Positions 4,782 to 53,188 are shown, counted from the first letter of the stretch. The stretch: 64,000 nt of DNA from an uncultured bacterium (GCA_938024995.1 CALJDU010000006.1:83052-147051); one strand, 5' to 3'. Notes: generated by a model from the sequence alone, not told the origin. Numbers and translations are program-made.

Positions 4782-5249
4782 CTAACGCTTGGCTTGAACG
4801 ATGTGGAAGAGCGCCATTCCAAGCACGGTGCCCGCGAGGACCACGAGCGCCTCTCGCTGAAGCGTGGCCGCGGTGGTGATCACCGGACCTGGGCAGAAGC
4901 CGCCAAGGCCCCAGCCGATTCCAAAGAGCGCGGCGCCGACGATGAGCGGTCGATCGATCACCGTCTTGGTCGGGAGGTGAAGCCGGCTCCGGAACACGGT
5001 CTCCTTCTTCTTCGCGATCGCGCGATAGACCGGCAGGTAGATCGCGATCGCGCCGCCCATGACGAGACCCAGGCTCGGGTCCCAGCTCTCGAGCCCGCGT
5101 GAGAAGTCGAAGAAGCCGATGACCTTGGACGCCTTTGTCATCCCAGCCAGCGCGAGCCCGATGCCAAAGATGCATCCAGACGCGAACACGGCGTACGCCT
5201 TTTGCGAGCGCTCCTTCTTTCGTTTGGACCTCTTCTTCGCCTTGCTCAT
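4782..5249 (-). CDS. YeeE/YedE family sulfur-compound transporter half (DUF395)
   Basis: GGFCPGP hallmark motif; 4 TM helices. Start taken at internal ATG 5249 (MSKAKKRSKR…); its ATGA overlaps the stop of the upstream paralog. Confidence 0.65.
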   Translation of the reverse strand: MSKAKKRSKRKKERSQKAYAVFASGCIFGIGLALAGMTKASKVIGFFDFSRGLESWDPSLGLVMGGAIAIYLPVYRAIAKKKETVFRSRLHLPTKTVIDRPLIVGAALFGIGWGLGGFCPGPVITTAATLQREALVVLAGTVLGMALFHIVQAKR

Positions 5250-5677
5250 GACAGGCCCCACACGGTGAACGCGGCGGTCGCCATGAAGGTGATGACCGCG
5301 ACGAGCGAACGACGAGAGAAGCGACTGAGCCCGCACACCCCATGACCGCTGGTGCACCCGCCGCCCAGCTGGGTACCGACGCCAACGAAGAGCCCGGCCG
5401 CGAAGAGCTGCGTGGTGCTGCGGTCAATGCCGAAGGTGTAGGCGTCGGGGACCATGGCCGAGATGCCGGCGCCCGAGAACACGAGCCCGATGATGAAGAG
5501 CGCGCGCCACGAGCGATCCGCGCTTCGGCCCGCCAAGAGCTGCCCCGTGATCCCGCTGATGCCCGCGATGCGCCCGTTGACGACCAAGAGCACCGCGGCC
5601 GCGAGGCCGATGAGGGCCCCGCCCGCGAGCGAGGCGTAGGGCGTGAAGTTCTCCATGCGCTTACGTTGCGGCACCAA
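5246..5677 (-). CDS. YeeE/YedE family sulfur-compound transporter half (DUF395)
   Basis: GGGCTSGHGVCG hallmark motif; 4 TM helices; 4-nt overlap with the downstream paralog. Confidence 0.65.
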   Translation of the reverse strand: MVPQRKRMENFTPYASLAGGALIGLAAAVLLVVNGRIAGISGITGQLLAGRSADRSWRALFIIGLVFSGAGISAMVPDAYTFGIDRSTTQLFAAGLFVGVGTQLGGGCTSGHGVCGLSRFSRRSLVAVITFMATAAFTVWGLS

Positions 5678-5730
5678 ACCGCCGCCGTCGAGTTCTCGCT
5701 GCGCTACCCTCTGCGGCTCAAGGAGACCAG

Positions 5731-6774
5731 ATGTTCTTTCGCCAACTTTTTGATCGTGACTCCTCGACCTTCACGTACTTGATCGCGGACGAGGAGACCC
5801 AGGAGGCGGCCTTGGTGGACCCGGTTCGGGATCAGATCGACCGTGACCTCTCGTTGATCGAAGAGCTCGGCTTCACGCTCAAGTACACGTTCGAGACCCA
5901 TGTCCACGCGGACCACATCGCGGCGTCCGGGATGCTCCGAAAGCGAGTCGGGAGCGAGTCCGTGATGGGCGCTCACGCGGGCGCGGCCTGTGCCGACCAC
6001 ATGCTGGGTCACGCGGATCGGTTTCAGTTGGGCAGCGTTGAGGTCGAAGCGCGACACACCCCGGGTCACACCAGCGGCTGCGTCAGCTTCGTCATTCCGG
6101 AAGAGCGCCTGGTCTTTACGGGGGACACGCTCTTGGTGCGCGGTTGTGGCCGGACGGACTTTCAGGAAGGCGACGCGGGGACGCTCTACGACTCGGTCCA
6201 TCAGCAGCTCTACTCGCTGCCGGATCACTTCGCGGTTTACCCAGGTCACGACTATCGCGGCCGAAGCGCGACCTCCATCGGAGAAGAGAAGCGCCACAAC
6301 CCGCGGCTCAAGAGCGAGGTGTCGCGCGACGCGTTCATCGAGATCATGGGCAACCTCAACCTCAGCCAGCCGCGCATGATCGCGGTCGCGGTGCCCGCCA
6401 ACCTGATGTGCGGCCTGGATCCCGAGACCACGCCGTGGGCGGTCGTCACGCACTCGGTCGATGGCGTCCCCGAGGTCGACGTCGCGTGGTTGCGAAGTCA
6501 CCGCGCGGAGGCGCTCCTGATCGATGTCCGCGAAGAAGAAGAGATCGTCGGTGAGCTCAAGATCTTGAGCGACGCCGAGCACGTCCCGCTTGGCATGCTG
6601 GGAGACGTCATGCGCAACGCCGACCGGGACGCGCCGGTCGTGATCATTTGCCGAAGCGGGCGCCGATCGGCCCGCGCGGTGGTCGAGCTCGGGGCGGCCG
6701 GGTTCTCGCGTTGTGCATCGCTCGCGGGTGGGATGATCGCTTGGTATGAGTCTCAGCCCGGCAGCTGCGGATAA
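5731..6774 (+). CDS. Persulfide dioxygenase (ETHE1-like MBL fold) fused to C-terminal rhodanese domain
   Basis: HVHADH metal-binding motif and an MBL fold (HxHxDH…H…D…H). C-terminal rhodanese with active-site loop CRSGRRS. Confidence 0.8.
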   Translation: MFFRQLFDRDSSTFTYLIADEETQEAALVDPVRDQIDRDLSLIEELGFTLKYTFETHVHADHIAASGMLRKRVGSESVMGAHAGAACADHMLGHADRFQLGSVEVEARHTPGHTSGCVSFVIPEERLVFTGDTLLVRGCGRTDFQEGDAGTLYDSVHQQLYSLPDHFAVYPGHDYRGRSATSIGEEKRHNPRLKSEVSRDAFIEIMGNLNLSQPRMIAVAVPANLMCGLDPETTPWAVVTHSVDGVPEVDVAWLRSHRAEALLIDVREEEEIVGELKILSDAEHVPLGMLGDVMRNADRDAPVVIICRSGRRSARAVVELGAAGFSRCASLAGGMIAWYESQPGSCG

Positions 6775-6802
6775 GCGCGGGCTGCCTCAGCAGGAGCGTT
6801 TC

Positions 6803-7948
6803 ATGAAGAAGATGAGTCTCTCGATCAGCCTGGCGTGCGCGCTTGGCTGCGGCAGCGCGACCACGCCCCCCACGTCGCGTGACCACGGGCACCACCACGC
6901 GCATGACGAGCATGACGACCACGGCTCACGGGAGGGCAACGCCGACGGACATCATCACGACTTCAGCGACGTCGCCCGTTACTCCGCGCGCTTCGACGCG
7001 CCGCAGCGCGAAGCGTGGCAACGCCCCGACGAGGTCGTCGCCGCGATGAACATCCAGCCGACCATGACCGTCGCGGATATCGGCGCGGGAACGGGCTACT
7101 TCCTCTCGCGCTTGTCGCGGGCCGCCAGCGAAGGTCAGGTGCTCGCGCTCGACGTCGAGCCGGCGATGGTCGCGCATATGCAAACGCGCGCGGCAGAAGA
7201 GTCGCTGGGTAACATCGAGGCGCGCGAGATCGCGCCCGACGATCCGGGGCTCGCGGCGGGGTCGATCGATCGCGTCTTGATCGTGAACACCTGGCACCAC
7301 ATCGGCGCGCGTGAGGCGTACGCGGCGAAGCTCAGGGAAGCGCTCAAGCCGGGCGGGGAGGTGATGATCGTCGACTTCAATCACGACGCGCCCTTCGGTC
7401 CGCCGGCCCATGCGCGTATCCCGCCCGAGCAGGTAATCGCGGAGCTGAGCGCGGGAGGCTTGGTCGCGACCGCGATCACCGAGTCGCTCCCGCATCAGTA
7501 CATCGTGATCGCGCGGAGCGGATTGGCGCTGCGGAACGAGCGATGGACGAGCGAGCGGATCACGACCTCGGGACAGCCGGACGCGGCGACGCTCGCGCGC
7601 GCTCAACAAGCGGGCGTGACGCAGGTGATCTCGTTGCGACGAGAGTCGGAGCCGGGGTTCGCAGAAGAGCAGGCCACCGCGGCGGAGCTTGGGCTCCAGT
7701 TCGTCTCGATCCCGGTTGATGATGTCGCGGGACTGACGCGCGAGAACGCCACCGCCCTTCACGAAGCGCTCTCCGCGCCGGGCCAGGCGCTCGTCCATTG
7801 CGGTTCCGGAAACCGCGCCGGAGCGCTCTTGGCGTTACGCGCGTTCTTGTTTCAGTCCGCGAGCGTCGAGGACGCGGTGGATGCGGGTCGACGGGCGGGG
7901 CTGACGCGCCTCAGCGGTGAAGTGACGGAGATCCTGACCGGCTGGTGA
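6803..7948 (+). CDS. Lipoprotein: His-rich N-terminal region + class I SAM-dependent methyltransferase + C-terminal DUF442/Blh-type phosphatase-like (CX5R) domain
   Basis: Lipobox LACALGC; HGHHHAHDEHDDHG…GHHHDF; SAM motif I VADIGAGTGYF; C-terminal VHCGSGNRAG (CX5R). Internal ATG 6803 chosen because the longer ORF start at 6746 overlaps the upstream gene. Confidence 0.6.
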   Translation: MKKMSLSISLACALGCGSATTPPTSRDHGHHHAHDEHDDHGSREGNADGHHHDFSDVARYSARFDAPQREAWQRPDEVVAAMNIQPTMTVADIGAGTGYFLSRLSRAASEGQVLALDVEPAMVAHMQTRAAEESLGNIEAREIAPDDPGLAAGSIDRVLIVNTWHHIGAREAYAAKLREALKPGGEVMIVDFNHDAPFGPPAHARIPPEQVIAELSAGGLVATAITESLPHQYIVIARSGLALRNERWTSERITTSGQPDAATLARAQQAGVTQVISLRRESEPGFAEEQATAAELGLQFVSIPVDDVAGLTRENATALHEALSAPGQALVHCGSGNRAGALLALRAFLFQSASVEDAVDAGRRAGLTRLSGEVTEILTGW

Positions 7949-9352: not shown

Positions 9353-9471
9353 GCCCTGAGCCTGGAGGCTTCCCTGCGATCGTCAAGGATCTTCGTGCAA
9401 ACTCGTTAGCCTCAAAGACACTCATTTGGCCGGATGTTTGAGCGCGGGCTTCCGCGGAGTATCCTGTGTCT

Positions 9472-10800
9472 ATGCGACTTAGAGTTTTGCTTGTCGCGCT
9501 GGCGCTCATGGCGTTCGCGTGTGGCGACGATGACACGTCAACCGACACGAACCCCCCGATGGACACGGGCGGCATCGATAGCAACGTCGACACTGGGGGC
9601 CCGGACGTCGTGGATTCGTCGATGGACGTGCCCGACGGTGACCTCCCCGACGTTCTGCCCGACGTGATGATTCCAGATGGCGGCGGCGGAGAGTGTGCGG
9701 AAGGAGAGATCATCTCGTTCTACGAGCTCGCGACCGGGTTCGCTTTTGACCAGCGACGAGTCGACATCTCGGGTCACTCCGGTGGGTTTGAGGTGACGTG
9801 GCGAGCGAACGATGGCGGGGACAACTTGTACGTCGCGCGGATCGCGCGAGAAGAGGGCGCCGAGCCTGTGATCACGCAGGTGACCGACGACTTCTCCATC
9901 TCAGGTTCACCCGCGATTCTCTCCATCGACACGACCAACTCGGTGCTCGCGTGGTTCGACAACTCGTCCGAGAACTTCGAGATCTACGCGCGGCAGCTCT
10001 CCTCTGGCTCCCCGCTCGCGCTTCGACGCATCACGAACACCGCGCTTCGCGAGGACAACCCCACTCTGATTTACAACGGCGCGAACCCGCTGCTCGGTTG
10101 GATTGAGGACTCGGGCGCGTCTCGCCAGATCAAGCTTCAGGAGCTCTCCGCAGCGGGTGCGCCGATGGGCACACCGACGGCGATCACATCGGCTGCAAAC
10201 TCTCCGCAGCGGATCGCGATGGCGCGCGCGGGCGACAACATCGCGGTGGCATGGACCGATACGACGAGCACCGGCACCAACGTCATGACGCAGATCGTGA
10301 CGCCTGAGGGAACTCCGATCGCCACGCCGACCACGATCACGTCCGAGGGGAACGCCTTGGGCGCGGTCGACATCACCGAGACCACCGCGGGCGCTGCCCT
10401 GGCGTACGGCGTCTCGATCGACGGCGTCCGCTCGGAGGTGCGCTTTCGCGTGATCGACGCCGCGGGGGCGACCGCCACGGGCGAGCGAATTTTGACGTTC
10501 GCGCCGGAGGAAGGCTCCGACCCGGGCATCGTTCAGCTCGCGGGTGGCTACGTGGTCGCGTATCGCGCGACGCGTGATGAGGGCCTCGAGTTCCCAGAGC
10601 TTCGGGTCGTCTTCGTCGACTCGGGTGGAGACATCATCGCGACTGACGAGCCCGGCTTCGCGATGAGCGAGCAGGGCGGACCGGTGTCGATCGCGACCTC
10701 AGGTCCGGGCTACGCGATGGCGTGGGCCGATGTGGACGAGTCCGGAACGACGATTCGCGCCGCGATGTTCCGCTGCCTCGTCTTGGGAGACGAAGGATGA
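9472..10800 (+). CDS. Secreted lipoprotein, hypothetical (repeat-rich, beta-propeller-like)
   Basis: Lipoprotein signal MRLRVLLVALALMAFAC|GDDD; D/G-rich linker; repeated ~45-aa units. The stop overlaps the next start (ATGA). Confidence 0.5.
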   Translation: MRLRVLLVALALMAFACGDDDTSTDTNPPMDTGGIDSNVDTGGPDVVDSSMDVPDGDLPDVLPDVMIPDGGGGECAEGEIISFYELATGFAFDQRRVDISGHSGGFEVTWRANDGGDNLYVARIAREEGAEPVITQVTDDFSISGSPAILSIDTTNSVLAWFDNSSENFEIYARQLSSGSPLALRRITNTALREDNPTLIYNGANPLLGWIEDSGASRQIKLQELSAAGAPMGTPTAITSAANSPQRIAMARAGDNIAVAWTDTTSTGTNVMTQIVTPEGTPIATPTTITSEGNALGAVDITETTAGAALAYGVSIDGVRSEVRFRVIDAAGATATGERILTFAPEEGSDPGIVQLAGGYVVAYRATRDEGLEFPELRVVFVDSGGDIIATDEPGFAMSEQGGPVSIATSGPGYAMAWADVDESGTTIRAAMFRCLVLGDEG

Positions 10801-11858
10801 CGCCGCGCATCGCTTTCCTCTGTACGTTGCTGGCCTGTCTCGTGGTTGTCGGCTGTGGCGACGACGACGCCTCACCACCGCCTCCACCCCCGATCGATAC
10901 CGGATCGCCACCGGACACGACCCCCAGTGACAGCGGGGTCGACAGCAACATGGACGCCCCCGATCCGATGGACGGAGATGTCGGAGATGCGGGCGACGCG
11001 GATGTCCCTGACGTGATGCTCGACACGAGCGTTGGGGACGGTGGTGAGCGTGACACGGGGCTTGTCTTTCCGGACGACACCGGGCTCTCGGACGACGTCT
11101 CGACCGATGTCGAGGGCGTGGATGCGTGCTCCACGGTGTTGGATGGCATTGTTTGCCCGGACCTTCCGGAGACGTGTGGACCCGGTCTGACCTGTGTCGA
11201 TGATGGCTGCGGAGGACGGGTCTGCATCCCGTCGTCTCACCGCTGCTCGACGGCAGAGGACTGCCCCGCGGGGAGCATGTGCATGGAGGTCGAGCCGGGC
11301 GCGGAGCCTACGTGCATTCGTGGGTCAGGCTGCGGTGACTCTCGTGATTGTGCGTTCGGCTTTGCGTGCGAAGCGGGAGCCTGCGTGGACCGGCGCGTGG
11401 GTTGCGACGCCCCGCCTGCGACGTGTCCGCAGGGCTACGTGTGCATGGACACCTCAGATTTTGGGACCGACCTCACGTGCGTCCCGGCGCACTACAAGTG
11501 CGACACCGATGTTGCCTGCGATGGGGTCCCGCTCTTCTCGATCTGCGCGGATGTGGATGGAGATGGAAACAATGAGTGTGTGAGTGAGACCGGGTCGTGC
11601 ACGACCTCAGAGATGTGCGGAGACCTCACCTGCATCTACGACACTCGCTTCGGCGGGATGAACTGCTCCAGCAGTGGCCTTTGTGCAGACGCCACCGATT
11701 GTGGCGCAGGTTACAGCTGCGTCGATCTGTGGGGTGACGGTCTCAAACAGTGTGTGGAGGCAGGATCATGCAGCTCCACGGCTGATTGTCCTGCACCTCA
11801 GATCTGTGCAGTGCCGTTCGGCGAAACCACCCCTCGTTGTTGGGGTGAAGGCATCTAG
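10797..11858 (+). CDS. Cysteine-rich secreted lipoprotein (repeated C-x-G-x-x-C modules)
   Basis: Signal MTPRIAFLCTLLACLVVVGC|GDDD; ~40 Cys in tandem modules (…CPAGSMCMEVEPGAEPTC…CGDSRDCAFGFACEAGAC…). Confidence 0.55.
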   Translation: MTPRIAFLCTLLACLVVVGCGDDDASPPPPPPIDTGSPPDTTPSDSGVDSNMDAPDPMDGDVGDAGDADVPDVMLDTSVGDGGERDTGLVFPDDTGLSDDVSTDVEGVDACSTVLDGIVCPDLPETCGPGLTCVDDGCGGRVCIPSSHRCSTAEDCPAGSMCMEVEPGAEPTCIRGSGCGDSRDCAFGFACEAGACVDRRVGCDAPPATCPQGYVCMDTSDFGTDLTCVPAHYKCDTDVACDGVPLFSICADVDGDGNNECVSETGSCTTSEMCGDLTCIYDTRFGGMNCSSSGLCADATDCGAGYSCVDLWGDGLKQCVEAGSCSSTADCPAPQICAVPFGETTPRCWGEGI

Positions 11859-12008
11859 GCCTCGCACTTTTTTCATACACATGAAGTTGATGCACTCGCG
11901 AGAGATAATTTTGTGAATGATTACAACGAGTATGGCTCGGCGTAATCGTTGCATTCTTCCTACGCGGGTGCGTCTGCATCCGTTCGGATTTCGAGATTGG
12001 GTGAGACG

Positions 12009-14621
12009 ATGAAGAGGGTCCTTTTTCTCGCGTTTTCCATGGCGCTTTTGGCGTCATGCACGGAAGGCGGCGATCCTGCGCCAGCTGCGCCGACGCCTGG
12101 AACCGAGTTTCCAGAAGCGCCGCAAGCCATCACTGGAGATGCGGGGTCTTGTGCAGAACCCGCACCAGGGTGTCCATGTTCCGAAGGCGCAGAGCCCGTG
12201 GACTGCTATCTCGATCCGATCGAGGTGGATGGAACGCTGACCTGCAACGCGGGCCAGATGTTCTGCGTGGATGGCACCTGGAGCGAGTGTCGCTCGCTTC
12301 GGTCGTTTGAGATCGAGAGCGAAGCCTCTCTCTCGGACGGTCCGCTCGAGTGCAACCCGTGCAACCCCGACTGCTCCCGTTCCACCGACTACCCCAGCGC
12401 CGACGATCTCACCCCGGAGCGAGCGGATGGAGTCGTCGCGGTACCTGGCGGTATCTCGCTCGAAGGCGAGACGATGACCGAGCTCCTCGACACGGACGGT
12501 GACGGGATTCCAGACGACGCAGACTCGTGTCGCACCACGCCAGGAACACCTGAGTACTTTGGTTGCCCTTCTGGGACCGAGAGCGGTTTCTACCACTCGC
12601 TCCCGTTTGGTGGTCCGGTGGAAGTCGACCCTCTCTCCTTCCCGATCACCGTCACCACGGCAGACGTCTACTTCCTGATGGACACGACCGGTTCGATGGG
12701 TGGTGAGATCTCCAACCTTCAGCGCGGCCTGACCTCCGGCACCTACGTCGCCGGGTGTGGCGGCGGCGTCATTGGCGGTATTGGATGCATCGTTCCCAAC
12801 GCCTGGTTCGGCGCGGCGTTCTTTGACGACTATCCCGTGAGCCCGTACGGCTCGAGCGGTTCTGGTGATGAGGTTTACCGGAACCGCCAGGACCTGACGT
12901 CAGACGCGGCGGCTGCGCAGCGCGCGGTGACCGGCTTGCGTCGTCACTACGGTCGGGACGGACCCGAGAGCAACAGCCAGGCGATCTGGGCAGTAACCAC
13001 GGGTCGCGGTCTCGGTCGTTACCTCACAAACCGAAGCAGCTGTCCGGATGGTCGCTGGGGTTGGCCATGTTTCCGCGCGGACACGATCCCGATCATCGTT
13101 CAGTTCACCGACGCGACCTATCACCAGGGTCCCAGCGGTCAGAACTACAACCCGCGCATCCTCGCGGGTGGCGGGAGTGCTGGAAGCGGTCCGTACGTGG
13201 ATCCCAGCCCGTTCCGATACGTTTACGGCAACCACGACCAGTCACGCGCGGTGTACGCTGGCGACGCGACCCGCGACTGGAACGGCTTTTCGGGCAACAC
13301 CTGCCTTCACAACAACGCCTACAACAACATCTACTGCAACGGGCTCTACTCGCCTGATGTGGTCTTCCGCTTCACCGCAACCAGTACGCGGAACATCTTG
13401 GTCTCGACCAAGGACTCCACCTACAACACCGTCGCGGGCATTCGTGACTACCGGTTCCGTTACCGTAGTTGCAACGACAACGACACGCGCGCCGGCAGCC
13501 TGAACTCGTACATGGACTACCGCGTGTCGGCAGGCACTTGGTACGTCATCGTCGACGGCTATGGCTGGCGTTCCCGCCGCCGCGTCTGCACCACCTACTA
13601 CTGGTGGGGTCGGCCGCGCACGTCGTGTCGCTACACCTACGTCTACAACTCCAGCTGCGGCAACTACAAGGTCGCGATCGGAACCCCTCCCCCGCCTGAG
13701 ACCGATACCGGATCGGGTCCGCTCCCCGTGACCTGGCCCGAGGTGGTTCGCGCGGTTCGTGAGCGCGGCATCAAGATGATCACCGTCGAGTCGAGCGGTG
13801 GTTGGGGCGGCGCGCGACCGGACTCGGTTGCGCTCGCGAACGCGACCGGGTCGACCGACGCGCGCGGAGCTCCCTTCGTGTTCTCGATCAGTTCGTCGGG
13901 GTCGGGCCTCGACCGCGCGGTCATCGACGCGGTCAGCATCCTCGCGAACAACTCTCGCTACGACGTGGCGGCGCGTGGGTCGGACAACCCAGCGACTGAG
14001 ATCGACGAGCGAAACTTCGTCGAGCGCGTCACCGCGGTGAGCTTCCCAGCAGGTCGCTGCACCGGAAAGACGGCGTCAACGTTCCTTCAGTGTCTCCCCG
14101 GCACCTCGGTTCGCTTCGACGTCGCCTTTAGAAACGACTTCGTACGTCCCACGACAACCGCCCAGGTGTTCAACTTCTTCATTGAGGTGACGCTCTCGGG
14201 CATTGTGCAGACGCGCGTCCCGGTCCGAATCGTGGTTCCGCCCGATGTCACGACCTACGAGCCGGGCTCGTTCTCCCGTGTCTACGACGCGAACACGCGG
14301 TGCGAGATTCCGCCGGAACGACCTGACTGGGGGACCTTCACCTACCGGTCCAACACACCGGATGACTCGAAGATTCGCTTCGTCTTCCAGACGGCGAACA
14401 CCGAGGCGGGGCTCGCTGGAGCCGATCCGCTCACCATCGCCGTTCCGCTTGCGGACGATGACGGGAGCTTTGACCTAGGTCAGTTCCTGGTCGACAACGG
14501 CCAGCAAAACTACAGACCGTACGTCAAGATGACAGCGTTCCTCGATCCTTCCTCGAGCCGAACCGCGGCCCCAACACTCACTGGGTTTGAGCAGACGTTT
14601 GTCTGCGCTGACGCGGAGTAA
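12009..14621 (+). CDS. Large secreted lipoprotein with von Willebrand factor A (VWA) domain
   Basis: Signal MKRVLFLAFSMALLASC; MIDAS motif in VYFLMDTTGSMGGEI; Cys-rich N-terminal region; ~870 aa. Confidence 0.6.
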   Translation: MKRVLFLAFSMALLASCTEGGDPAPAAPTPGTEFPEAPQAITGDAGSCAEPAPGCPCSEGAEPVDCYLDPIEVDGTLTCNAGQMFCVDGTWSECRSLRSFEIESEASLSDGPLECNPCNPDCSRSTDYPSADDLTPERADGVVAVPGGISLEGETMTELLDTDGDGIPDDADSCRTTPGTPEYFGCPSGTESGFYHSLPFGGPVEVDPLSFPITVTTADVYFLMDTTGSMGGEISNLQRGLTSGTYVAGCGGGVIGGIGCIVPNAWFGAAFFDDYPVSPYGSSGSGDEVYRNRQDLTSDAAAAQRAVTGLRRHYGRDGPESNSQAIWAVTTGRGLGRYLTNRSSCPDGRWGWPCFRADTIPIIVQFTDATYHQGPSGQNYNPRILAGGGSAGSGPYVDPSPFRYVYGNHDQSRAVYAGDATRDWNGFSGNTCLHNNAYNNIYCNGLYSPDVVFRFTATSTRNILVSTKDSTYNTVAGIRDYRFRYRSCNDNDTRAGSLNSYMDYRVSAGTWYVIVDGYGWRSRRRVCTTYYWWGRPRTSCRYTYVYNSSCGNYKVAIGTPPPPETDTGSGPLPVTWPEVVRAVRERGIKMITVESSGGWGGARPDSVALANATGSTDARGAPFVFSISSSGSGLDRAVIDAVSILANNSRYDVAARGSDNPATEIDERNFVERVTAVSFPAGRCTGKTASTFLQCLPGTSVRFDVAFRNDFVRPTTTAQVFNFFIEVTLSGIVQTRVPVRIVVPPDVTTYEPGSFSRVYDANTRCEIPPERPDWGTFTYRSNTPDDSKIRFVFQTANTEAGLAGADPLTIAVPLADDDGSFDLGQFLVDNGQQNYRPYVKMTAFLDPSSSRTAAPTLTGFEQTFVCADAE

Positions 14622-14654
14622 CCACTGAAGCGATCGCTCCTGTTCTTCGCCGTC

Positions 14655-16388
14655 GTGCTCCTCGTTGGGTGCGGCGGCGATGACGTTTCGGATACGTCAT
14701 CGGACACTGGTGATTCCGGAATGGACGCGCAAGTTCCGGATACGAGCGACGCGACAGACGCCACGACTGACGCCGTGCTGGCGGACGCCTCCGACACGGC
14801 GGTGTTTGATGGCGAGCCGCCAACCTTCGACGCCGCGGGGACCTGGTTCGAGGAGCGCGGTGACCTCGGCTTTCGTCGCCGCGCCAAAGACGGCTTCGCC
14901 TCGCTCGGCGATCGCATGTCGGGTGGCGTGTGCGTCATCGACGCGGATGGTCGACCTCCGCTCGATCTCTTCTTCGCGCTGCGTCCATGGGAAGACGACG
15001 ATGGAGCTCATGGCGCGAAGCTCTTCACCGCCGACGGCCCCTTCGACTACCGGCCCGCATCACCTGCGCTCTTCGGTGCGCTGGACACCATCACGGACGC
15101 GATCGGATGCCTGGCGTTCGACGCCGACGGTGACGGTGACGACGACCTCTTGGTCACCGAGTACGGCGGCCTTCGCTTCTTCGAGCGCGGAGCGTCTGGA
15201 TTCGTGGCGCGGCCTGACGCGTTTAGCCTCCCCGCCGATCCCCAAGCGGTCTACGCGAGCGCAGCGGCCGGCGACCTCGACCAGGACGGCGATCTCGACC
15301 TCGCGATCGCGGGCTTCTATCGCTGGGACGAGGAGCGCTTCATCGGCGTGGAGTGCAGCAGTATCGGTTGCTCCAACGAGCTCGTCTTACTCGAACCGTT
15401 GCCGAACCTCCTGCTGATCCGCGGGCCCGACGGTCGCTACACCTCGCGCCCCGATCTCGCGCCAGACATGACGCGGGAAGAGCCGACTCTGGTCGTGATG
15501 ATCGCGGACCTGGACGTCGACGGGCTCCCTGACATCTACGTCGGCAATGACCTCGGCACCACGTACGAGGATCGCCCGCTCAGTCGCGATGAGGACGGCA
15601 TCTTTCGCGACGTGTCGATCCAGATCGGGCTGGCGTTTAACGAGGCGCGCCGCGGGGTCGACACGATGGCGGCGACCCGAGGCGACATCGACGGCAACGG
15701 TCGCCTCGACCTGGTCTCGACGAGCTTCGAGGGCGACCGGACCGCGGTCTTCCTCTGCGGCGATGATGGCTATTGTGAAGACCGCGACATCGGGACCTCG
15801 ATCACCGAGCGATCGTTTCGCTGGGGCGCGGCGCTAGCGGACTTCGATCGTGACGGCTTCATCGATCTCTTCGAGGCCAGCGGGAACATCCTGAGCGAAG
15901 CGGAGATCTCGCTTGGCCGTGCGCTCGGTCCGCAATACCAACGGCCCAACGTCTACCAAAACCAAGCCGGTTCGTTGGTCCCGGTGACCATCAGCGGAGA
16001 CATCGCGACGCCTCGCGCGGCCCGCGGGATCACCGTCGCGGACCTCGATGACGATGGCGACCCGGACGTGGTCCTCGCGCCTTCGGAAGGTGCGCCCGTG
16101 ATGTTCGAGAACGTGCGCGCTCCCGCCGGACACTGGCTCCGCGTGGTCCTCGACGCGCCACCGCCGAACACTCGCGCGGTCGGGGCGATGGTACGGGTCG
16201 TGACGCCGCGGCAGACCTACCTCCGTGAGCAGAGCGCGGGAGAGGGCTATTTGGGTAACTTCGACTCGCGGATCCTGTTCGGGATCACCGACCCCGAACC
16301 CGTTACGGTCATTGTGCGCTGGCCAAACGGCGAGGAGACGATCGCGCGCGACATCGCGGTCGATCAAGAAGTAACGTTGTCCCCATGA
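14655..16388 (+). CDS. CRTAC1-family protein: FG-GAP/VCBS repeats + C-terminal ASPIC/UnbV domain (lipoprotein)
   Basis: GDLDQDGDLDLAIAG, DIDGNGRLDLVST and DDDGDPDVVLA are FG-GAP Ca-binding repeats. C-terminal VGAMVRVV…REQSAGEGYLGNFDSRILFGI is an ASPIC/UnbV signature. The true start may be an upstream CTG at 14625, giving LKRSLLFFAVVLLVGC as the lipoprotein signal. Confidence 0.7.
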   Translation: MLLVGCGGDDVSDTSSDTGDSGMDAQVPDTSDATDATTDAVLADASDTAVFDGEPPTFDAAGTWFEERGDLGFRRRAKDGFASLGDRMSGGVCVIDADGRPPLDLFFALRPWEDDDGAHGAKLFTADGPFDYRPASPALFGALDTITDAIGCLAFDADGDGDDDLLVTEYGGLRFFERGASGFVARPDAFSLPADPQAVYASAAAGDLDQDGDLDLAIAGFYRWDEERFIGVECSSIGCSNELVLLEPLPNLLLIRGPDGRYTSRPDLAPDMTREEPTLVVMIADLDVDGLPDIYVGNDLGTTYEDRPLSRDEDGIFRDVSIQIGLAFNEARRGVDTMAATRGDIDGNGRLDLVSTSFEGDRTAVFLCGDDGYCEDRDIGTSITERSFRWGAALADFDRDGFIDLFEASGNILSEAEISLGRALGPQYQRPNVYQNQAGSLVPVTISGDIATPRAARGITVADLDDDGDPDVVLAPSEGAPVMFENVRAPAGHWLRVVLDAPPPNTRAVGAMVRVVTPRQTYLREQSAGEGYLGNFDSRILFGITDPEPVTVIVRWPNGEETIARDIAVDQEVTLSP

Positions 16389-18091
16389 ACGCCAAGTCAT
16401 CACTCACGAGCGCGCTGGTCGCGTTCGCGCTCCTGACGGGGTGCGGAGATGACGACACTGGAGGCGTCTCGGACTCCGGCACGTTGGACACGGGAAGCGA
16501 CGTGATGACCGACACCGGCGAGGTCGACACCGGCCCCGTCGATCCGACCTGGTTCAACGAGGTCGGCGCGGACATCGGCGTCGACATTGAGTTCGTGAAC
16601 ACCTACGACACCTTGACGCGACGGATGCTCGCGGGGGTGTGCGTAATCGATGTCGACGGAGAGGCGCCCCTCGATCTCTTCTACGCGCTCGGCGACAAGA
16701 CCGGCGACAACCTCTCGCGCCTCTACGTTGGTCAGGGCGAGATGCGCTTCGCGGACGAGACGAGCGAGCGGATGGGCGAGCTGCCGATCGCGGGCGGTTG
16801 CCTCGCTTTCGACATCGATGGAGACCGCGACGACGACCTGATCCTCACGGGCCTCGGTTTGGTCACCGCGTACATCAACGACGGCGGAACCTTCACGCGT
16901 CGGGACGACCTCTTTGACGTGGAGGTCGATGAGTTCGACATGATGACCTCCGCGGCGGCCGGAGATCTCGACGGCGATGAAGATCTCGACCTCGTCGTGT
17001 CCGGCTTTATGAACCGAAGAGAGGCGCTCACGGTCGGCGGCACGTGTGGGTTCGTTCCGTGCGCGGTTGAGATCGCGCCCGAGACCGAGATCCGAAACTA
17101 CGTCTTCGCGTGGAACGGAGCGCGCTACGAGGACGTGACCGAGACCCTTGTGCCGGGGATGATGACGCCGGCCGCGACGCACACCGTCATGATCACGGAC
17201 ATCGGCGACGACGGGATCCAGAACATCTGGCAGGGCAACGACTTCGGCCACATCACGTTCAACGCGGTCTACGGTTATCGTGATGGGGTCTATGAAGATT
17301 TCTCGGAGCTCCACGGGATGATCTTCAACCGGCTGGAGTCGGGCCAGGACACAATGGGGTTCACCCAAGGCGACGTGAACAACGACGGCATCATGGACTT
17401 CGCGTCGACGGACTTCGAGCGTCGCGCGTCTGGGATCTACGTCTGTGATGAGGACCTCCACTGCGCCGACGCCTCGCGCAACATCGGCACCGAAGAGCTG
17501 GCCGACAGCTTTCGCTGGGGGAACGCGTTTGTGGATCTCGATCTCGACGGGTGGGTCGATCTGGTCGAGGCGACGGGTCAGATTTACTCCATCCTCGAGA
17601 CGAACGCGCTTGGGTTTAGCAGCCTCGCGCTGCAGCGACCGAACATCATGCGGAACCACCGCGGCACCTTTGAGCCCGCGGACCCGGTCGAAGGTGAAGC
17701 CCACGGAGAGGTGTACGCGACCCGCGGGATCAGCGTGACGGACCTCGATGACGATGGGCTGCCCGATGTCCTCTTCGCCCCCGTCTTCGGGCGCGCCCCG
17801 GTCTTTCACAACATCCGCGCGACCGATGGGCACTACCTGCGCGTGGTCCTCGAGGGGCGCGCTCCGAACACCGGCGCGGTCGGCGCCAAGGTGACCCTGC
17901 GCGGCGAGACGCAGACCTTGATCCGTCGCCGCCTGGCCGGCGAGGGCTACCTCGGGAACTTCGATCCGCGCATCTTTTTCGGCACCGTGGATGAGGGGCC
18001 CTACGAGGTCATCGTGAAGTGGCCGGACGGAACCACCACGACCCGAAGCGACGTCCCCGCGGACAGCGAAGCGGTCTTTCGCCAAGAGTGA
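16385..18091 (+). CDS. CRTAC1-family protein paralog (FG-GAP repeats + ASPIC/UnbV), lipoprotein
   Basis: Signal …ALVAFALLTGC|GDDD; same architecture as the upstream gene (VGAKVTL…LAGEGYLGNFDPRIFFG). ATGA overlap implies translational coupling. Confidence 0.7.
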   Translation: MNAKSSLTSALVAFALLTGCGDDDTGGVSDSGTLDTGSDVMTDTGEVDTGPVDPTWFNEVGADIGVDIEFVNTYDTLTRRMLAGVCVIDVDGEAPLDLFYALGDKTGDNLSRLYVGQGEMRFADETSERMGELPIAGGCLAFDIDGDRDDDLILTGLGLVTAYINDGGTFTRRDDLFDVEVDEFDMMTSAAAGDLDGDEDLDLVVSGFMNRREALTVGGTCGFVPCAVEIAPETEIRNYVFAWNGARYEDVTETLVPGMMTPAATHTVMITDIGDDGIQNIWQGNDFGHITFNAVYGYRDGVYEDFSELHGMIFNRLESGQDTMGFTQGDVNNDGIMDFASTDFERRASGIYVCDEDLHCADASRNIGTEELADSFRWGNAFVDLDLDGWVDLVEATGQIYSILETNALGFSSLALQRPNIMRNHRGTFEPADPVEGEAHGEVYATRGISVTDLDDDGLPDVLFAPVFGRAPVFHNIRATDGHYLRVVLEGRAPNTGAVGAKVTLRGETQTLIRRRLAGEGYLGNFDPRIFFGTVDEGPYEVIVKWPDGTTTTRSDVPADSEAVFRQE

Positions 18092-34893: not shown

Positions 34894-36213
34894 ATGCGCG
34901 TTTTTCTTTGGTCGGTAGGTCTGTGCTTCCTCAGCGTCGCGTGCGGCGATGACGATCGTCCGCGCGACGCGATGCCGTCGGACACGGGTTCCGATGCGGC
35001 CGACACCAACACGGCCGACACCGACACGGCCGACACCAACACGGACACGGAGGTTGCTGACGCGGACGCGGGAACGGCCGGATGCCGAGAGAGCTTGATC
35101 GCGAACATGACGTTCCCGGCGGCCCCTGGATTTCGTCGCACGCAGGTTCAGCCTGACTTCGCGTTTGATGGCGAGAAGTTCTGGGTGTCGCTCACGGTCG
35201 ACGAAGGCGAAGAGTCCTCCAAGCTGGATGTCTACGGTGTGCACGTACGGTGCGACGGCAGCACCGGCGAGCCGTTCCCGGTCGGGACCACGACGGAAGG
35301 AAATGACGGGGACGCCGCGGTCGCGATCGGCAACGACCGCGCGATGTTCGCGTGGCAGCTCGATGACGGAACCGGTGGCTCGGGCAACCTCGATATTCGC
35401 GTCCGCGCGTTCGCGCTCGACGGCACACCCCAAGGTGACGACGTCCTGGTGGAGACCACGTTGGATGGCGCGCCGTTCACCGGCTCGATGTGGATGGCGG
35501 AGATCGCGCCGACGGCGGACGGCTTCGTCGTGGTCGGGAGCCGCGCGGTCGAGTCCCGAAGCGCCTTCAATGTGTTCGCCTACAATGTGGGTCTCGATGG
35601 CGGCGCGGTCGGCGAGACGATTGACGTGATGCCCGCGATGGACAACCAGCTCGAGCCCTCGGTCGCGGTGAGCAGCGCGGGAGACGTTCACCTCGCTTGG
35701 AACGCGCAGCTCGACCCGAACGACGAAGCGCGTCACCTCGCGATCGGCGACTCCGAAGCGCGCCCGATCGTTGCCGACGTCTTGCTCTCCGGCGCGGCCG
35801 ACATCGCGATCGATCCTGCGCACCCAGAGCGACGGCTCGTCGCGGTTCAGGCGGGAGGCTCGAGCGATGCCGACATTCACATCGTCGATGTGGCTTCTGC
35901 CGCGCAGAACAGCGATTCGGTGGGCGCGCTTGGTCGACTGGACATCGCGCCTCAGATCGCGGCCATCGAAGATGGCGGCGCGGTCGTGTTCCTGCGCAAC
36001 GTCCGTGGCATCCGCAACGAGCTCTTCGTCGCGTTCTACGACTACGACGGGTCCACACTCACGATCGATGCGCCGATCCAGGTTGAAACGGTCGAGCCCG
36101 TCGCGACGTACGTTCCAGGTATCACGCACATGTTCGACGACACGTACGCCATCGTCTGGAGCGAAGGGATATCCCCCGGCTTCAAGGTCATGACGCGAAT
36201 CGTGGAGCGCTGA
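34894..36213 (+). CDS. Secreted lipoprotein, hypothetical (repeat-rich; loosely resembles the 9472-10800 protein)
   Basis: Signal MRVFLWSVGLCFLSVAC|GDDD; TD-rich linker (ADTNTADTDTADTNTDTE); repeated beta-strand-like units. Confidence 0.5.
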   Translation: MRVFLWSVGLCFLSVACGDDDRPRDAMPSDTGSDAADTNTADTDTADTNTDTEVADADAGTAGCRESLIANMTFPAAPGFRRTQVQPDFAFDGEKFWVSLTVDEGEESSKLDVYGVHVRCDGSTGEPFPVGTTTEGNDGDAAVAIGNDRAMFAWQLDDGTGGSGNLDIRVRAFALDGTPQGDDVLVETTLDGAPFTGSMWMAEIAPTADGFVVVGSRAVESRSAFNVFAYNVGLDGGAVGETIDVMPAMDNQLEPSVAVSSAGDVHLAWNAQLDPNDEARHLAIGDSEARPIVADVLLSGAADIAIDPAHPERRLVAVQAGGSSDADIHIVDVASAAQNSDSVGALGRLDIAPQIAAIEDGGAVVFLRNVRGIRNELFVAFYDYDGSTLTIDAPIQVETVEPVATYVPGITHMFDDTYAIVWSEGISPGFKVMTRIVER

Positions 36214-36223
36214 ACTCGGGCGG

Positions 36224-37102
36224 CTAGCGGAGGAAGCTCTCGAGGTCGCTGACGGACTCGAGGATCTTCGCTCGGGTCCCCTTGAAGCGGAGCGCGCCGC
36301 GTCCGCCAAATACAAGGTCGACGCCCACCGGGAGCTCTCGCGCGATCATCTCGACCTGCGTCTTGTTCTGTTCTGACTCGTTCACCAACGAGAGCATCAC
36401 GACGTTCGCGTTGGACTCGATCGCGGCGTAGAGGATCTCTTCGGCGGGGAGGTCGGCGCCGAGGTAGATGAGCTCCCAGCCGTGCGCTGCGGCGAGGAGA
36501 CCTACTGTCAAGATCCCGAACTCGTGTCGCTCGCCGCTCGGCGTCGCGACCACCACGCGTCGCGCGTTGCTCTTCGGATACGTGCGGGTCAACGAGATAA
36601 CGAGGCTGCGAATGCAAGTACACGCGATGTGCTGATGCACGATCCGCATGGCGCCGGCTTCCCACATTTCGCCGACGCGCTTGAGGATCGGGTTCACGAC
36701 CTGATCGATCAGCTCGTGGGGTCCAAGCGAGATCGAGGCGCGCCCGAGGATCTGCTCCGCGCCGCCCACGTCGAAGTTGAGGATCGAGTCGACGAATTCA
36801 TCCACGAGCTGCGGGGGCTCGGCACGTCGAAACGGCTTGGAACTCACCCGCTCCATCCGCTCCAGCTCCGGGGTCTGAAGCGTGGCGATGGTGCCGATGG
36901 AGTGGCCCCGATCCGTTAGGCGCTTCAGGAGAGCGAGACGCTCCACGTTCTCATCGTCGTAGAGACGACCGCCAGCGGGCGTACGGTCAGGAACAACAGC
37001 TGCGTAGCGCTTCTCCCACATCCGCAGGGTGTGAGTGGAAAGCCCCGTAAGTCGCGCGACCATGCCGACGCGGTACCGAGCGCTCTGCGCAGATGTTGTC
37101 AT
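36224..37102 (-). CDS. MerR-family transcriptional regulator with C-terminal cobalamin-binding domain (CarH/LitR-like)
   Basis: N-terminal MerR HTH (YRVGMVARLTGLSTHTLRMWEKRY). C-terminal B12-binding Rossmann segment VVVATPSGERHEFGILTVGLLAAAHGWELIYLGADLP (E/DxHxxG…G). Confidence 0.65.
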   Translation of the reverse strand: MTTSAQSARYRVGMVARLTGLSTHTLRMWEKRYAAVVPDRTPAGGRLYDDENVERLALLKRLTDRGHSIGTIATLQTPELERMERVSSKPFRRAEPPQLVDEFVDSILNFDVGGAEQILGRASISLGPHELIDQVVNPILKRVGEMWEAGAMRIVHQHIACTCIRSLVISLTRTYPKSNARRVVVATPSGERHEFGILTVGLLAAAHGWELIYLGADLPAEEILYAAIESNANVVMLSLVNESEQNKTQVEMIARELPVGVDLVFGGRGALRFKGTRAKILESVSDLESFLR

Positions 37103-37224
37103 ACTTAATGTCTAAGTTGAACTAGGGTTTGAGTCAACGCTGTGTCAGTTTTTTGAGTTTAAACCTTGACGCCCGTAGCACTTATGCCTAACTAAAATGC
37201 AACCATGCTTATACAGGAGTGTAA

Positions 37225-38625
37225 ATGCGTCTAAGTTTGATTCTAGGTTTGGCTCTCTCTCTCATGACCGTCGGCTGTGGCGACGATGATACGGGTGTTG
37301 AAGACACCGGTTCACCCGATGCGGGTGACACGGGTGGCGAAGACACTGGTGGGGGTGGTTCCGCGATGGTCCGCCTGCTTCATCTCTCGCCCGATGCGCC
37401 CGCGGTCGACATCTTCCTGAACGGCGAGCGAAGCCCGCTCACCGGTCTCGCGTTCCCGAACGGCACGCCGTACGCCGAGCTTCCCGCCGGCTCCTACGAC
37501 GTCGACATCGTCCCCGCGGGTGGCGAGATCGGCGACAGCGTCTTGACCGTTCAGGACCTCGCGCTCGAAGCCGACACCATGTACTCGGCCGCCGCCATCG
37601 GCACCGTTGCGGGTGACCCGGCTCTCGCGGCGCTCCCGATCGTTGACTCGGCCGCTGACCTCGACGCTGCGAACATCCGCGTTCGCGCGATTCACGCCGC
37701 GGCTGCGGTGGGCCAGGTCGACATCTGGAACATCACCGATCCCGCCGCGCCTGCTGCGCTCTACGAAGACGTCGACTTCGGCGTCGCCGGAGACGCGCTC
37801 GACGTACCGGCCGGTGCCTACACGATCGGTCTCGACGTCGACGACGACGCCACCCCCGACGTGATCTTCGAGCTCCCCGAGCTCGCGGGCGGCACGGTCG
37901 TCAATCTCTACGCTGTCAACGACATGGAGGGCAACGTCTTCATCCAGGCGGCGCTTCCGGACGGCACCTACGCGCGCATCGACCCGACCGAGGCCGGCTC
38001 CGCGATGGTCCGCCTCCTTCACATCGCGAACGACGCGCCCGCGGTCGACATCTTCATCAACGGTGAGCGCAGCCCGGTCACCGGTTTTGAGTTCGGCGAG
38101 ACCACGCCGTACGTAGAGCTCGACGCCGGCGCCTACGAGATCGACATCGTTCCGGCTGGCCTCGAGCTCGCTGACAGCGTGTTCAACATCCCGTCCCTCG
38201 CGCTCGAAGCGAACACCTCCTACTCCGCGGCGGCCATCGGTACGCTCGCGGGCGACCCGGCGTTCTCGGTTCTCCCGATCGTCGACAGCGGCGCCGACCT
38301 CGCGGACGGCAACATCCGGGTCCGCGCGATCCACGCGGCCTCCTCCGTCGGCCAGGTCGACATCTGGAACATCACCGACACCCCCGCGCCGCTCTACGAA
38401 GACGTGGATTTCGGCGTCGCGGGTGACGCGCTCGACGTGCCCGCGGGCGCCTACACCATCGGCTTCGATGTCGACGACGACGCGACCCCCGACGTGACCT
38501 TCGCGCTCCCGGATCTCCCGGCGGGCACGGTGGTCAACCTCTACGCCGCGAACGAGATGGACGGCACCGTCTTCCTCATCGCTGCGCTTCCCGACGGCAC
38601 CTCCGCGCGCATCGACGCGGAGTAA
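37225..38625 (+). CDS. Lipoprotein with two tandem DUF4397-like domains
   Basis: Signal LALSLMTVGC|GDDD; two ~205-aa repeats, each starting GSAMVRLLH(L/I)(S/A)(P/N)DAPAVDIF(L/I)NGERSP…. Confidence 0.55.
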   Translation: MRLSLILGLALSLMTVGCGDDDTGVEDTGSPDAGDTGGEDTGGGGSAMVRLLHLSPDAPAVDIFLNGERSPLTGLAFPNGTPYAELPAGSYDVDIVPAGGEIGDSVLTVQDLALEADTMYSAAAIGTVAGDPALAALPIVDSAADLDAANIRVRAIHAAAAVGQVDIWNITDPAAPAALYEDVDFGVAGDALDVPAGAYTIGLDVDDDATPDVIFELPELAGGTVVNLYAVNDMEGNVFIQAALPDGTYARIDPTEAGSAMVRLLHIANDAPAVDIFINGERSPVTGFEFGETTPYVELDAGAYEIDIVPAGLELADSVFNIPSLALEANTSYSAAAIGTLAGDPAFSVLPIVDSGADLADGNIRVRAIHAASSVGQVDIWNITDTPAPLYEDVDFGVAGDALDVPAGAYTIGFDVDDDATPDVTFALPDLPAGTVVNLYAANEMDGTVFLIAALPDGTSARIDAE

Positions 38626-44761: not shown

Positions 44762-44837
44762 CCGCTTGTCGTCTAACGGTTTAGGACGCTCGTCTGATAC
44801 ACGGGCAATGGAAGTTCGATTCTTCCCAAGCGGACCA
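44762..44837 (+). tRNA. tRNA-Ile (anticodon GAU)
   Basis: ccgcttg/caagcgg acceptor; anticodon arm ctcgt-CTGATAC-acggg; T ggaag-TTCGATT-cttcc; CCA encoded. Confidence 0.6.
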
Positions 44838-44902
44838 TGTTCTGTTCGACGGAACGAAAAACGCGCCGCCGAGGCGACGCGTTCTACGCTCTTCCGAGCC
44901 GC

Positions 44903-45955: not shown

Positions 45956-46039
45956 GTCTAACGATCTCCGAAAACCGGGGATCGAAGCGTCCTCCAAATA
46001 GGTCACGTTGGTTCGATTTGACCTGCTCTGTACAGATTT

Positions 46040-52859: not shown

Positions 52860-52947
52860 CGAAGACAAACTGATCTGGGATCAGGCCTGCCTCGAAAACA
52901 GTGCGCGCCTTGATCGGCGTGAGGTTCGATTCCTCTGTCTTCGGCCA
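52860..52947 (+). tRNA. tRNA-Ser (anticodon CGA), class II with unusual D-hairpin
   Basis: cgaagac/gtcttcg-G-CCA; D hairpin ctgatc-tggg-gatcag; anticodon stem ctg(c)/(a)cag with compensatory C-G to U-A change versus the GGA paralog; loop CTCGAAA; T gagg-TTCGATT-cctc. Confidence 0.45.
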
Positions 52948-53060
52948 CTGCCCGCGGAGCTCGGCAACGAGACCTGCAAGAGCTCCTCCCGTCACTCGCG
53001 GTTCACCGGCACCTCATCAGGTCCGGTCGCTTCGCACCCACGCGCTCATCTGCGCTCTTT

Positions 53061-53137
53061 GTCCTTGTCGTCTAATGGTTCAGGATTTTCCGGCTTTCAA
53101 CCGGTGGATGCGGGTTCGAATCCCGCCGGGGACGCCA
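53061..53137 (+). tRNA. tRNA-Glu (anticodon UUC)
   Basis: gtccttg…cggggac-G-CCA; D gtct-aatggttc-agga; loop CTTTCAA; T gcggg-TTCGAAT-cccgc; closely matches the E. coli Glu pattern. Confidence 0.8.
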
Positions 53138-53188
53138 TTCTCATCGCGCCATCGCGCATCACTTTTCACCGCTCACCTTGAGGTCGTC

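Follow-up and report, generated by a model that had tools for sequence, protein, structure and literature searches.

A rare, apparently recurrent lipoprotein fusion of a methyltransferase fold and a DUF442 domain appended to a persulfide dioxygenase-rhodanese operon

A cluster of four genes occupies positions 4,782 to 7,948 of a 64,000-nucleotide stretch of DNA from an uncultured bacterium (GCA_938024995.1 CALJDU010000006.1:83052-147051), the whole of which is referred to here as the window. Two half-size genes of the YedE/YeeE family lie divergent from a gene for a persulfide dioxygenase (PDO) fused to a rhodanese, and this is followed on the same strand by a gene for a 381-residue lipoprotein (6803-7948, plus strand) in which Pfam matches, structural modeling and gene calls delimit a His-rich tail, a class I methyltransferase fold and a DUF442 fold. 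All four genes have strong homologues, and each was found where a first-pass annotation of the sequence had placed it. The dioxygenase and YedE parts form a kind of sulfide/persulfide-handling module that is already known; what is new is the added lipoprotein, apparently a rare but recurrent fusion of two uncharacterized exported families that has been appended to a standard operon of the persulfide dioxygenase-rhodanese fusion (PRF) type. The main interest of this lipoprotein is a paradox, in that it belongs to an exported family with an apparently intact S-adenosylmethionine (SAM) site in a compartment where no SAM pool is known.

The lipoprotein gene begins 29 bp after the PDO gene, most likely with the ATG codon at 6803, 8 nt downstream of an AGGAG sequence, and less likely at 6746; independent gene calls also give a product of 381 residues. 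Read from the sequence, its N-terminus has the hallmarks of a bacterial lipoprotein, namely a positively charged N-region (MKK), a hydrophobic region (SLSISLACALG) and a lipobox, MKKMSLSISLACALG, ending in Cys16 (signal peptide, 6803-6850, plus strand). The segment that follows (6851-6967, plus strand) is a tail rich in His, Asp and Glu, with 10 His and 8 Asp or Glu in the 39 residues after Cys16; it is predicted to be disordered, with a predicted local distance difference test (pLDDT) score below 60. The AlphaFold model of the whole protein has a pLDDT of 90.6 and a predicted template modeling (pTM) score of 0.84, with residues 1-50 disordered. Two domains follow the tail, connected by a linker of about five residues, and a pTM of 0.84 despite 50 disordered residues suggests that they are packed against each other in a fixed manner. 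Apart from the lipobox Cys16, the mature protein has a single cysteine, Cys333, and none occurs in residues 17-332. The annotation had described a lipoprotein with a His-rich N-terminus, a class I methyltransferase domain and a C-terminal domain, and this architecture was borne out throughout.

The first domain, residues 56-238 (6968-7516, plus strand), has the class I (Rossmann-type) methyltransferase fold. Residues 90-185 match Methyltransf_25 (PF13649; E 1.2e-15, 58.4 bits against a cut-off of 27), motif I reads DIGAGTG (7076-7096), and the acidic residue expected to bind the ribose, D117, stands at the end of strand 2. The SAM-binding site is thus, judged by its residues, intact, and at least 116 of 120 relatives have the same motifs. 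Further motifs are invariant in the family (TWHH, GPP..R and LP.QY), and an alignment of 20 sequences shows complete conservation of H52, F54, R69, W72, Q73, T-W-H-H, R170, Y173, G-P-P, R205, Q232 and Y233. The closest solved structure is 3dh0, an uncharacterized SAM-dependent methyltransferase of Aquifex aeolicus (Foldseek TM score 0.90, root-mean-square deviation 1.8 Å), which the family profile also matches (E 2.6e-31). The FD.P.R and GPP motifs are common to both; 3dh0 differs in having no His-rich tail in the alignment and none of the family-invariant W72/Q73 and WHH residues. No curated methyltransferase model of NCBIfam was matched at its cut-off, and no Mdd model occurred among the best 25 of 41 matches. 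Identity as an arsenite methyltransferase was considered and rejected, as the ArsM model scored 29.9 bits against a cut-off of 263 and the domain, having no cysteine at all, lacks the As(III)-binding cysteines.

This half of the protein has a great many stand-alone relatives, about 240 residues long, with which it shares 50-66% identity. When 1.84 billion cluster representatives were searched exhaustively, 356 matched at E ≤1e-30, so that the family comprises at least 356 clusters at 50% identity, from Myxococcota, Acidobacteriota, Proteobacteria, Bdellovibrionota and Cyanobacteria, and a genome scan found the nearest relatives in metagenome-assembled genomes (MAGs) of Polyangiaceae and Sandaracinus. 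A hydrophobic N-terminus occurs in 109 of 119 close relatives and a lipobox-like motif in 71 of them, while at least five His precede the conserved domain in 117 of the 119 (median, nine).

Members of the methyltransferase family are joined to other domains as well. In an Acidobacteriota MAG (L046:5863-7449), a His-rich exported methyltransferase domain carries a C-terminal copper-binding MbnP domain (PF20243, E 1.9e-40), and further members are fused to a META domain and to an M15 peptidase domain. P0291, an exported protein of 535 residues, has a rhodanese behind its signal peptide and then, in tandem, two copies of the family's methyltransferase domain; the rhodanese has the loop YCSCPREE and a weak similarity to the "LYCAU" rhodanese-related selenoprotein family. 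With P0291, a second and structurally unrelated type of Cys-loop sulfurtransferase is thus also fused to the methyltransferase family. In P0261 (510 residues), a signal peptide, a DinB_2 domain and three Cys/His repeats of the form HKCDPAKCKHHEAGEH precede the methyltransferase domain, and the repeat looks like a metal-binding cassette. A metallo-beta-lactamase domain fused in P0340 was considered as a possible PDO and rejected, since it resembles N-acyl homoserine lactone lactonases. Finally, in one open reading frame (ORF) with a product of 642 residues (L036:4669-6597), a membrane protein that has two "Gate" domains, of the nucleoside-recognition kind, is joined to a methyltransferase domain. 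Gate domains also occur in FeoB, and on a Methylosinus plasmid (L175) FeoB is encoded ahead of a family member that is followed by an amino-acid permease.

The second domain, residues 243-381 (7529-7945, plus strand), has the protein tyrosine phosphatase (PTP) fold in its DUF442 form, as judged from Pfam and from its fold matches. Within residues 248-348, PTP-SAK scored 31.1 bits (cut-off 27) and BLH_phosphatase/DUF442 (PF04273) 26.4 bits (cut-off 26.1), so that the gathering threshold of the latter was passed marginally; the related fusion protein P0254 reached 39.3 bits. The sulfur transferase model TIGR01244 stayed below its cut-off (33.3 of 85.85 bits), as did the Blh model NF040641 (40.9 of 625 bits), and the fusion protein has no ETHE1 domain. 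Modeled alone, the domain has a pLDDT of 96.6, and its top fold matches in the PDB are 3gxh, 3gxg and 2f46, with phosphatases such as the periplasmic TpbA ranking lower. These three are unfused DUF442 proteins from structural genomics, two structures from Shewanella (3gxg/3gxh) and one from Neisseria (2f46, NMA1982), which share the fold (TM score 0.74-0.76) and a C-X4-R loop with the window's domain at 21-23% identity. The DUF442/PTP-like fold that the annotation had assigned to the C-terminus is accordingly supported.

The active loop, H-C333-G-S-G-N-R (7796-7816, plus strand), was placed by alignment to these DUF442 structures. It aligns without gaps to 3gxg (HCLANYR) and 2f46 (YCRTGTR) and needs a one-residue insertion to align with TpbA (HCKHGNNR); the classical phosphatase P-loop, H-C-X5-R-(S/T), is absent from the domain, which has H-C-G-S-G-N-R-A instead. 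By its C-X4-R spacing and gap-free alignment, the loop belongs with those of DUF442 proteins and not with those of phosphatases, and the annotation's "CX5R DUF442" was therefore right about the domain and slightly wrong about the loop.

Work by others has shown by experiment that the DUF442 domains of Blh and of the Cupriavidus sulfide:quinone oxidoreductase (SQR) are sulfurtransferases (PMC5823870, PMC9163753). Both Blh (DUF442-ETHE1, from Xylella and Agrobacterium) and the DUF442-SQR of Cupriavidus pinatubonensis share with the window's domain the fold and a catalytic Cys in a loop of the C-X4-R type. In those proteins the domain acts with a PDO or an SQR (PMC5823870, PMC9163753), whereas here it is predicted to be exported and is joined to a methyltransferase fold in place of ETHE1 or SQR. 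It had been proposed that the domain was taken over from its usual ETHE1 partner. Its relatives do not favor this origin, for the nearest ones (45-58% identity) are stand-alone proteins of 170-215 residues that have a signal peptide or lipobox and whose loop reads HC[GA]SGNR[AV]G, and no PDO occurred in the three contexts examined.

Fusions of the two domains are rare. Eight proteins were found, in four groups (P0001 and P0002; P0003, P0004 and P0254; P0005 and P0006; and P0277), and 160 further loci from genome and metagenome scans contained stand-alone forms but no fusion, nor did a stand-alone DUF442 gene lie beside a stand-alone methyltransferase gene in any of the 160. For both domains, the sequences nearest to each fusion group are stand-alone proteins and not the other fusions. 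This nearest-neighbor comparison, which is short of a full phylogeny, suggests that the fusion arose several times independently. The linkage to a PDO is narrower still. P0002 alone, 72% identical to the window's protein, adjoins a PDO gene (locus L001), which it overlaps by 4 nt, and its locus shows synteny with the window in both directions, so that the two represent the same evolutionary observation and not independent ones. Among the other three groups, the neighbors that could be read on short contigs are NUDIX, frataxin and ExbBD genes, a Tll0287-like gene and an isochorismatase gene. A conserved linkage of the fusion with PDO genes, as the annotation had anticipated, largely failed to appear.

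The lipobox, the signal peptides in most relatives of both halves, and the fusions of family members to periplasmic-type MbnP, META and M15 domains provide several independent supports for one location, and the whole lipoprotein is predicted to be exported, lipid-anchored and extracytoplasmic. Considering that 117 of 119 relatives carry at least five His in the region of the His-rich tail and that some are fused to MbnP or contain Cys/His repeats, it is plausible that the tail binds a metal, as had been suggested when the His-rich stretch was first noticed.

The gene upstream of the lipoprotein gene (5731-6774, plus strand; AGGAG before its ATG) encodes a PDO-rhodanese fusion of the PRF type, with Pfam Lactamase_B and Rhodanese matches. 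It has the order that defines BpPRF-type proteins, in which the ETHE1-type metallo-beta-lactamase domain comes first and the rhodanese domain second, and it aligns over its full length (residues 2-339) to the solved BpPRF of Burkholderia phytofirmans (5ve3, E 1.2e-103) and also to human ETHE1 (4chl, E 1.8e-69). Its translation, aligned to 5ve3, keeps the metal motif HVHADH (HxHxDH type) and the rhodanese loop CRSGRRS with the catalytic Cys, and it has no signal peptide. Between BpPRF (PDB 5ve3/5ve4) and the window's protein, which share both domains and the CRSGRRS loop, there is no material difference. Loci related to the BpPRF-type cluster likewise hold YedE halves and, at times, SulP and ArsR genes.

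The transporter genes on the other strand represent a split form of the Sulf_transp family. One (4782-5249, minus strand) encodes a half-size membrane protein of 155 residues, a length also given by an independent gene call, of the DUF6691 type (PF20398, E 2.5e-35, 122 bits; PF04143, E 8e-6) with a GGFCPG motif. The other (5246-5677, minus strand) corresponds to the C-terminal half of Sulf_transp (PF04143, E 4.2e-9, 36.8 bits against a cut-off of 27, profile positions 177-308) and has the motif GGGCTSGHGVCG; it starts at a TTG at 5677 or at an ATG at 5656, the latter being the choice of an independent gene call (136 residues). The Pfam scores exceed their cut-offs and both Cys motifs, GGGCTSGHGVCG and GGFCPG, are kept. 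Membership of Sulf_transp and the Cys-containing motifs are also features of the YeeE/YedE (TsuA) thiosulfate transporter, from which the window's transporter differs in being divided into two half-size genes, DUF6691 and the C-terminal half; against the TsuA model (NF052577) the window's YedE half scored 28.1 bits, below the cut-off of 400. The arrangement of split YeeE/YedE halves divergent from a PDO-rhodanese fusion is thus as first described. Literature searches on DUF6691 and on periplasmic methyltransferases found nothing.

The genomic surroundings of the stand-alone methyltransferases give a sulfur signal that is small and probably real. Clustering of 291 neighbors from about 60 loci revealed no dominant partner, as no family occurred in more than six loci. 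Targeted searches of 160 loci (1.28 Mb) with stand-alone relatives did turn up YedE-type genes, in five loci, and PDO genes, in three, and Pfam confirmed them. In an alphaproteobacterial MAG (L026), genes for a DsrE-like protein, TusA, an SQR-like flavoprotein, two Sulf_transp halves, a PDO and TauE are divergent from and adjoin the methyltransferase gene; in L173, genes for SulP, DUF6691, a Sulf_transp half, ArsR, a PDO and Trx2 are found, with the methyltransferase gene two genes on. YedE halves lie divergent from and directly adjoin the methyltransferase gene in a Burkholderiales locus (L057), and two Sulf_transp halves lie 1.4 kb upstream of it in a Polyangiaceae locus (L015). Since fewer than one such locus would be expected by chance, on the assumption of one or two such genes per 5-Mb genome, the enrichment is probably real, in about 4% of loci and some four lineages. 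The sulfur connection drawn in the first-pass annotation accordingly holds in part: a minority of stand-alone relatives near YedE, PDO or SQR-like/TusA/DsrE genes, the rhodanese fusion and the recurrence of the DUF442 fusion speak for it, and the lack of a dominant neighbor against it. As a separate observation, in two related metagenome contigs (L097:3636-4900 and L105:2703-3125) a gene for a zinc-ribbon thioredoxin (Trx2-type) is directly upstream of a family member, and in L097 its stop codon abuts the start codon of the methyltransferase gene.

A sulfur link of the lipoprotein is plausible on these grounds, and the reading we favor, tentatively and with a probability of roughly 0.4, is a two-step one in which the DUF442 domain is a periplasmic sulfurtransferase or carrier and the methyltransferase fold acts on the same species. 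In this reading a split YedE/YeeE-type membrane channel is encoded divergent from a cytoplasmic PDO-rhodanese of the BpPRF type, and this myxobacterial lineage has added to the PDO operon one gene, for a two-domain protein predicted to be exported and lipid-anchored. Through its single free Cys333, the DUF442 domain would serve as a sulfurtransferase or persulfide carrier, by analogy with the DUF442 domains of Blh and SQR and with the periplasmic rhodanese PspE, and would collect sulfane sulfur (from thiosulfate, polysulfide or selenium analogues) near the YedE-type channel. The methyltransferase-fold domain, being tightly attached to it, would then act on the same species, most likely turning persulfide or sulfide into a methanethiol-type product, and the His-rich tail may hold a thiophilic metal. 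A periplasmic sulfurtransferase or carrier is the most economical reading of the second domain because those of Blh and the Cupriavidus SQR were shown to be sulfurtransferases. As to the methyltransferase fold, its cofactor site is strictly conserved and it has repeatedly been joined to domains of the sulfurtransferase type, both of which speak for a reaction with that same sulfur or selenium species. The operon structure (29 bp with a Shine-Dalgarno sequence here, a 4-nt overlap in L001) and the recurrent pairing of exported families, together with the exported rhodanese-methyltransferase-methyltransferase protein P0291, also speak for it.

Several points weigh against this sulfur-linked reading. 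To our knowledge there is no SAM pool in the periplasm, so that the supply of a methyl donor is a gap in the model, and a protein exported through Sec would arrive unfolded and lacking its cofactor. Some 95% of the stand-alone methyltransferases have no sulfur-related neighbors and no neighbor family dominates, and the estimated enrichment depends on the background assumed, about one or two genes of this kind in a genome. None of the three other fusion groups with readable, short contigs stands beside a PDO, no sulfur genes were present in the three contexts of stand-alone exported DUF442 relatives, and neither an SQR nor a sulfide-sensing regulator was detected in the window with the queries used. 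The Pfam score for DUF442 is marginal (26.4 against 26.1 bits) and the TIGR01244 cut-off was missed. Contexts and fusions of a metal type also occur, among them a feoB-feoC-methyltransferase operon near methanobactin genes, the frataxin/ExbBD neighborhoods, the MbnP fusion and the Cys/His repeats.

These metal-type contexts lead to a competing explanation that we consider rather unlikely, namely that the lipoprotein handles metals in the periplasm, with a metal or metallophore bound or modified by the tail and by the conserved HH/Arg/Tyr site, and that its place beside the PDO gene is an accident of one lineage without functional coupling. The nearly universal His-rich tail of the methyltransferase family would be accounted for in this way, as would the members fused to copper-binding MbnP or equipped with HKCDPAKCKHH repeats, the feoB-feoC operon near methanobactin genes in one member, the two fusion groups beside frataxin and ExbBD genes, and the confinement of PDO linkage to one clade of fusions. 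The HH motif even lines up, by an approximate offset, with the HHD motif through which CysG binds metal (PMC11408123), but LHH at that position is common in ordinary methyltransferases. Against such an accident speak the PDO and fusion genes that are tightly spaced or overlapping in two genomes, the recurrent fusion partners that are Cys-loop sulfurtransferase-type domains (DUF442 and rhodanese), and the stand-alone members that recur beside YedE, PDO or SQR-like genes. It is unlikely, too, that the methyltransferase fold is a non-methylating module that binds a ligand in its nucleotide pocket or acts as a scaffold, leaving the DUF442 domain as the only catalytic part, a periplasmic sulfurtransferase serving the YedE channel. 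The complete DUF442 loop, the export of the protein into a compartment for which we know of no SAM, and the very diverse fusion partners, which suggest a general-purpose module, are all consistent with such a role. The strict conservation of motif I and of the ribose-binding acidic residue speaks against it, as do the dozen or so additional invariant residues in the 20-sequence alignment, a pattern typical of an active enzyme; moreover, a signal-peptide-bearing enzyme of the superfamily, MddM2, can be active (PMC12904073).

Two other explanations have less in their favor. That the C-terminal domain could be a periplasmic phosphatase of proteins or small molecules like TpbA, with a phosphorylated envelope component as its target and no tie to sulfur, follows from its PTP fold, from the presence of TpbA (a periplasmic tyrosine phosphatase) and other PTPs among the fold matches, and from the Pfam results, in which PTP-SAK is the top PTP-clan match and the stand-alone relatives match PTP-NADK best. 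The loop is nonetheless one residue short for a phosphatase (C-X4-R against C-X5-R) and aligns without gaps only with DUF442 structures, and the DUF442 domains that were tested are sulfurtransferases (PMC5823870), which together make this very unlikely. Least probable is the model first proposed, taken literally, of S-methylation of thiols or sulfide coupled to the cytoplasm alongside the PDO. The two genes do share an operon, and class I thiol S-methyltransferases do exist, as in MddH and TMT1A/B (PMC11445057). Yet the lipoprotein has a signal peptide, both of its parent families are exported, the PDO has no signal peptide, and the methyltransferase domain reached the cut-off of no curated methyltransferase family. 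Coupling to persulfide handling in the form proposed would hence put the two proteins in different compartments, and in the periplasm no SAM pool is known to us.

With regard to the sulfur-linked reading, the nearest functional parallels for the methyltransferase half are MddM2 and MddH, small class I methyltransferases that act on sulfide and thiols, the comparison being by description and shared fold only (PMC12904073, PMC11445057). MddM2 is a UbiE-family S-methyltransferase of H2S and methanethiol with a Sec signal peptide (PMC12904073); it has an unstructured N-terminus, and mddH sits among metal-resistance genes (PMC12904073, PMC11445057). In contrast to the window's protein, MddH is cytosolic and metal-independent, and neither of the two is fused to a sulfurtransferase. 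A stronger form of the reading, in which the members of the family are true extracytoplasmic methyltransferases that, with DUF442 or rhodanese sulfurtransferases, methylate sulfane sulfur or selenium outside the cytoplasm, is in our estimate improbable. If it were true, persulfide or polysulfide would be turned into methanethiol-type volatiles within the periplasm, where SAM or another methyl donor would have to be available. Activity of the methyltransferase fold outside the cytoplasm would reveal an extracytoplasmic methylation chemistry, and possibly a new way in which organisms give rise to volatile methylated compounds of sulfur or selenium, relevant to sulfur cycling and climate-active gases. 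If inactive, the family would be a large set of pseudo-enzyme-like periplasmic modules tied to metal and sulfur handling. Either outcome would provide a function for hundreds of clusters (356 at 50% identity, with many sequences behind each one) that are labeled only as "class I SAM-dependent methyltransferase".

Between the YedE halves and the PDO gene lies a divergent intergenic region of 53 bp (5678-5730), where the promoters presumably lie. One block within it, CGTCGAGT.C.TCG.TG, is kept in the relative L001; neither a σ70 consensus nor an inverted repeat was found in the region, and the locus as a whole yielded no promoter consensus, terminator or operator palindrome. The cluster is flanked by genes for an MFS-acyltransferase and, in convergent orientation, an FAD-linked oxidase (Pfam), both unrelated to it. 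Homologues of SQR, TusA, DsrE, TauE and ArsR were not detectable in the 64-kb window with the queries used.

Elsewhere in the window, many predicted lipoproteins with "...ACGDDD" at their beginning and a high content of Asp, Thr and Cys are encoded at 9466-18091, 34894-38625 and 54919-55716, with no Pfam match to any of them. Taken with the Polyangiaceae and Sandaracinus MAGs in which the nearest relatives occur, these lipoproteins suggest that the DNA comes from a member of the Myxococcota. The ORFs at 60089-61504 and 56182-56676, recognized by their N-terminal sequences only, are presumably DnaA and RuvC, and on the basis of these two N-termini the window may lie near a replication origin. 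Between 43596 and 54780, 34 tRNA genes are arrayed on the plus strand within about 11 kb, among them Asp-GTC and Val-TAC genes in duplicate and numerous isoacceptors for Arg, Pro and Leu. The GC content of this array is 0.58-0.60, compared with about 0.65 elsewhere, and the array is broken by two long ORF regions, one at 44837-46006 with overlapping ORFs on both strands and the other at 52901-54589.

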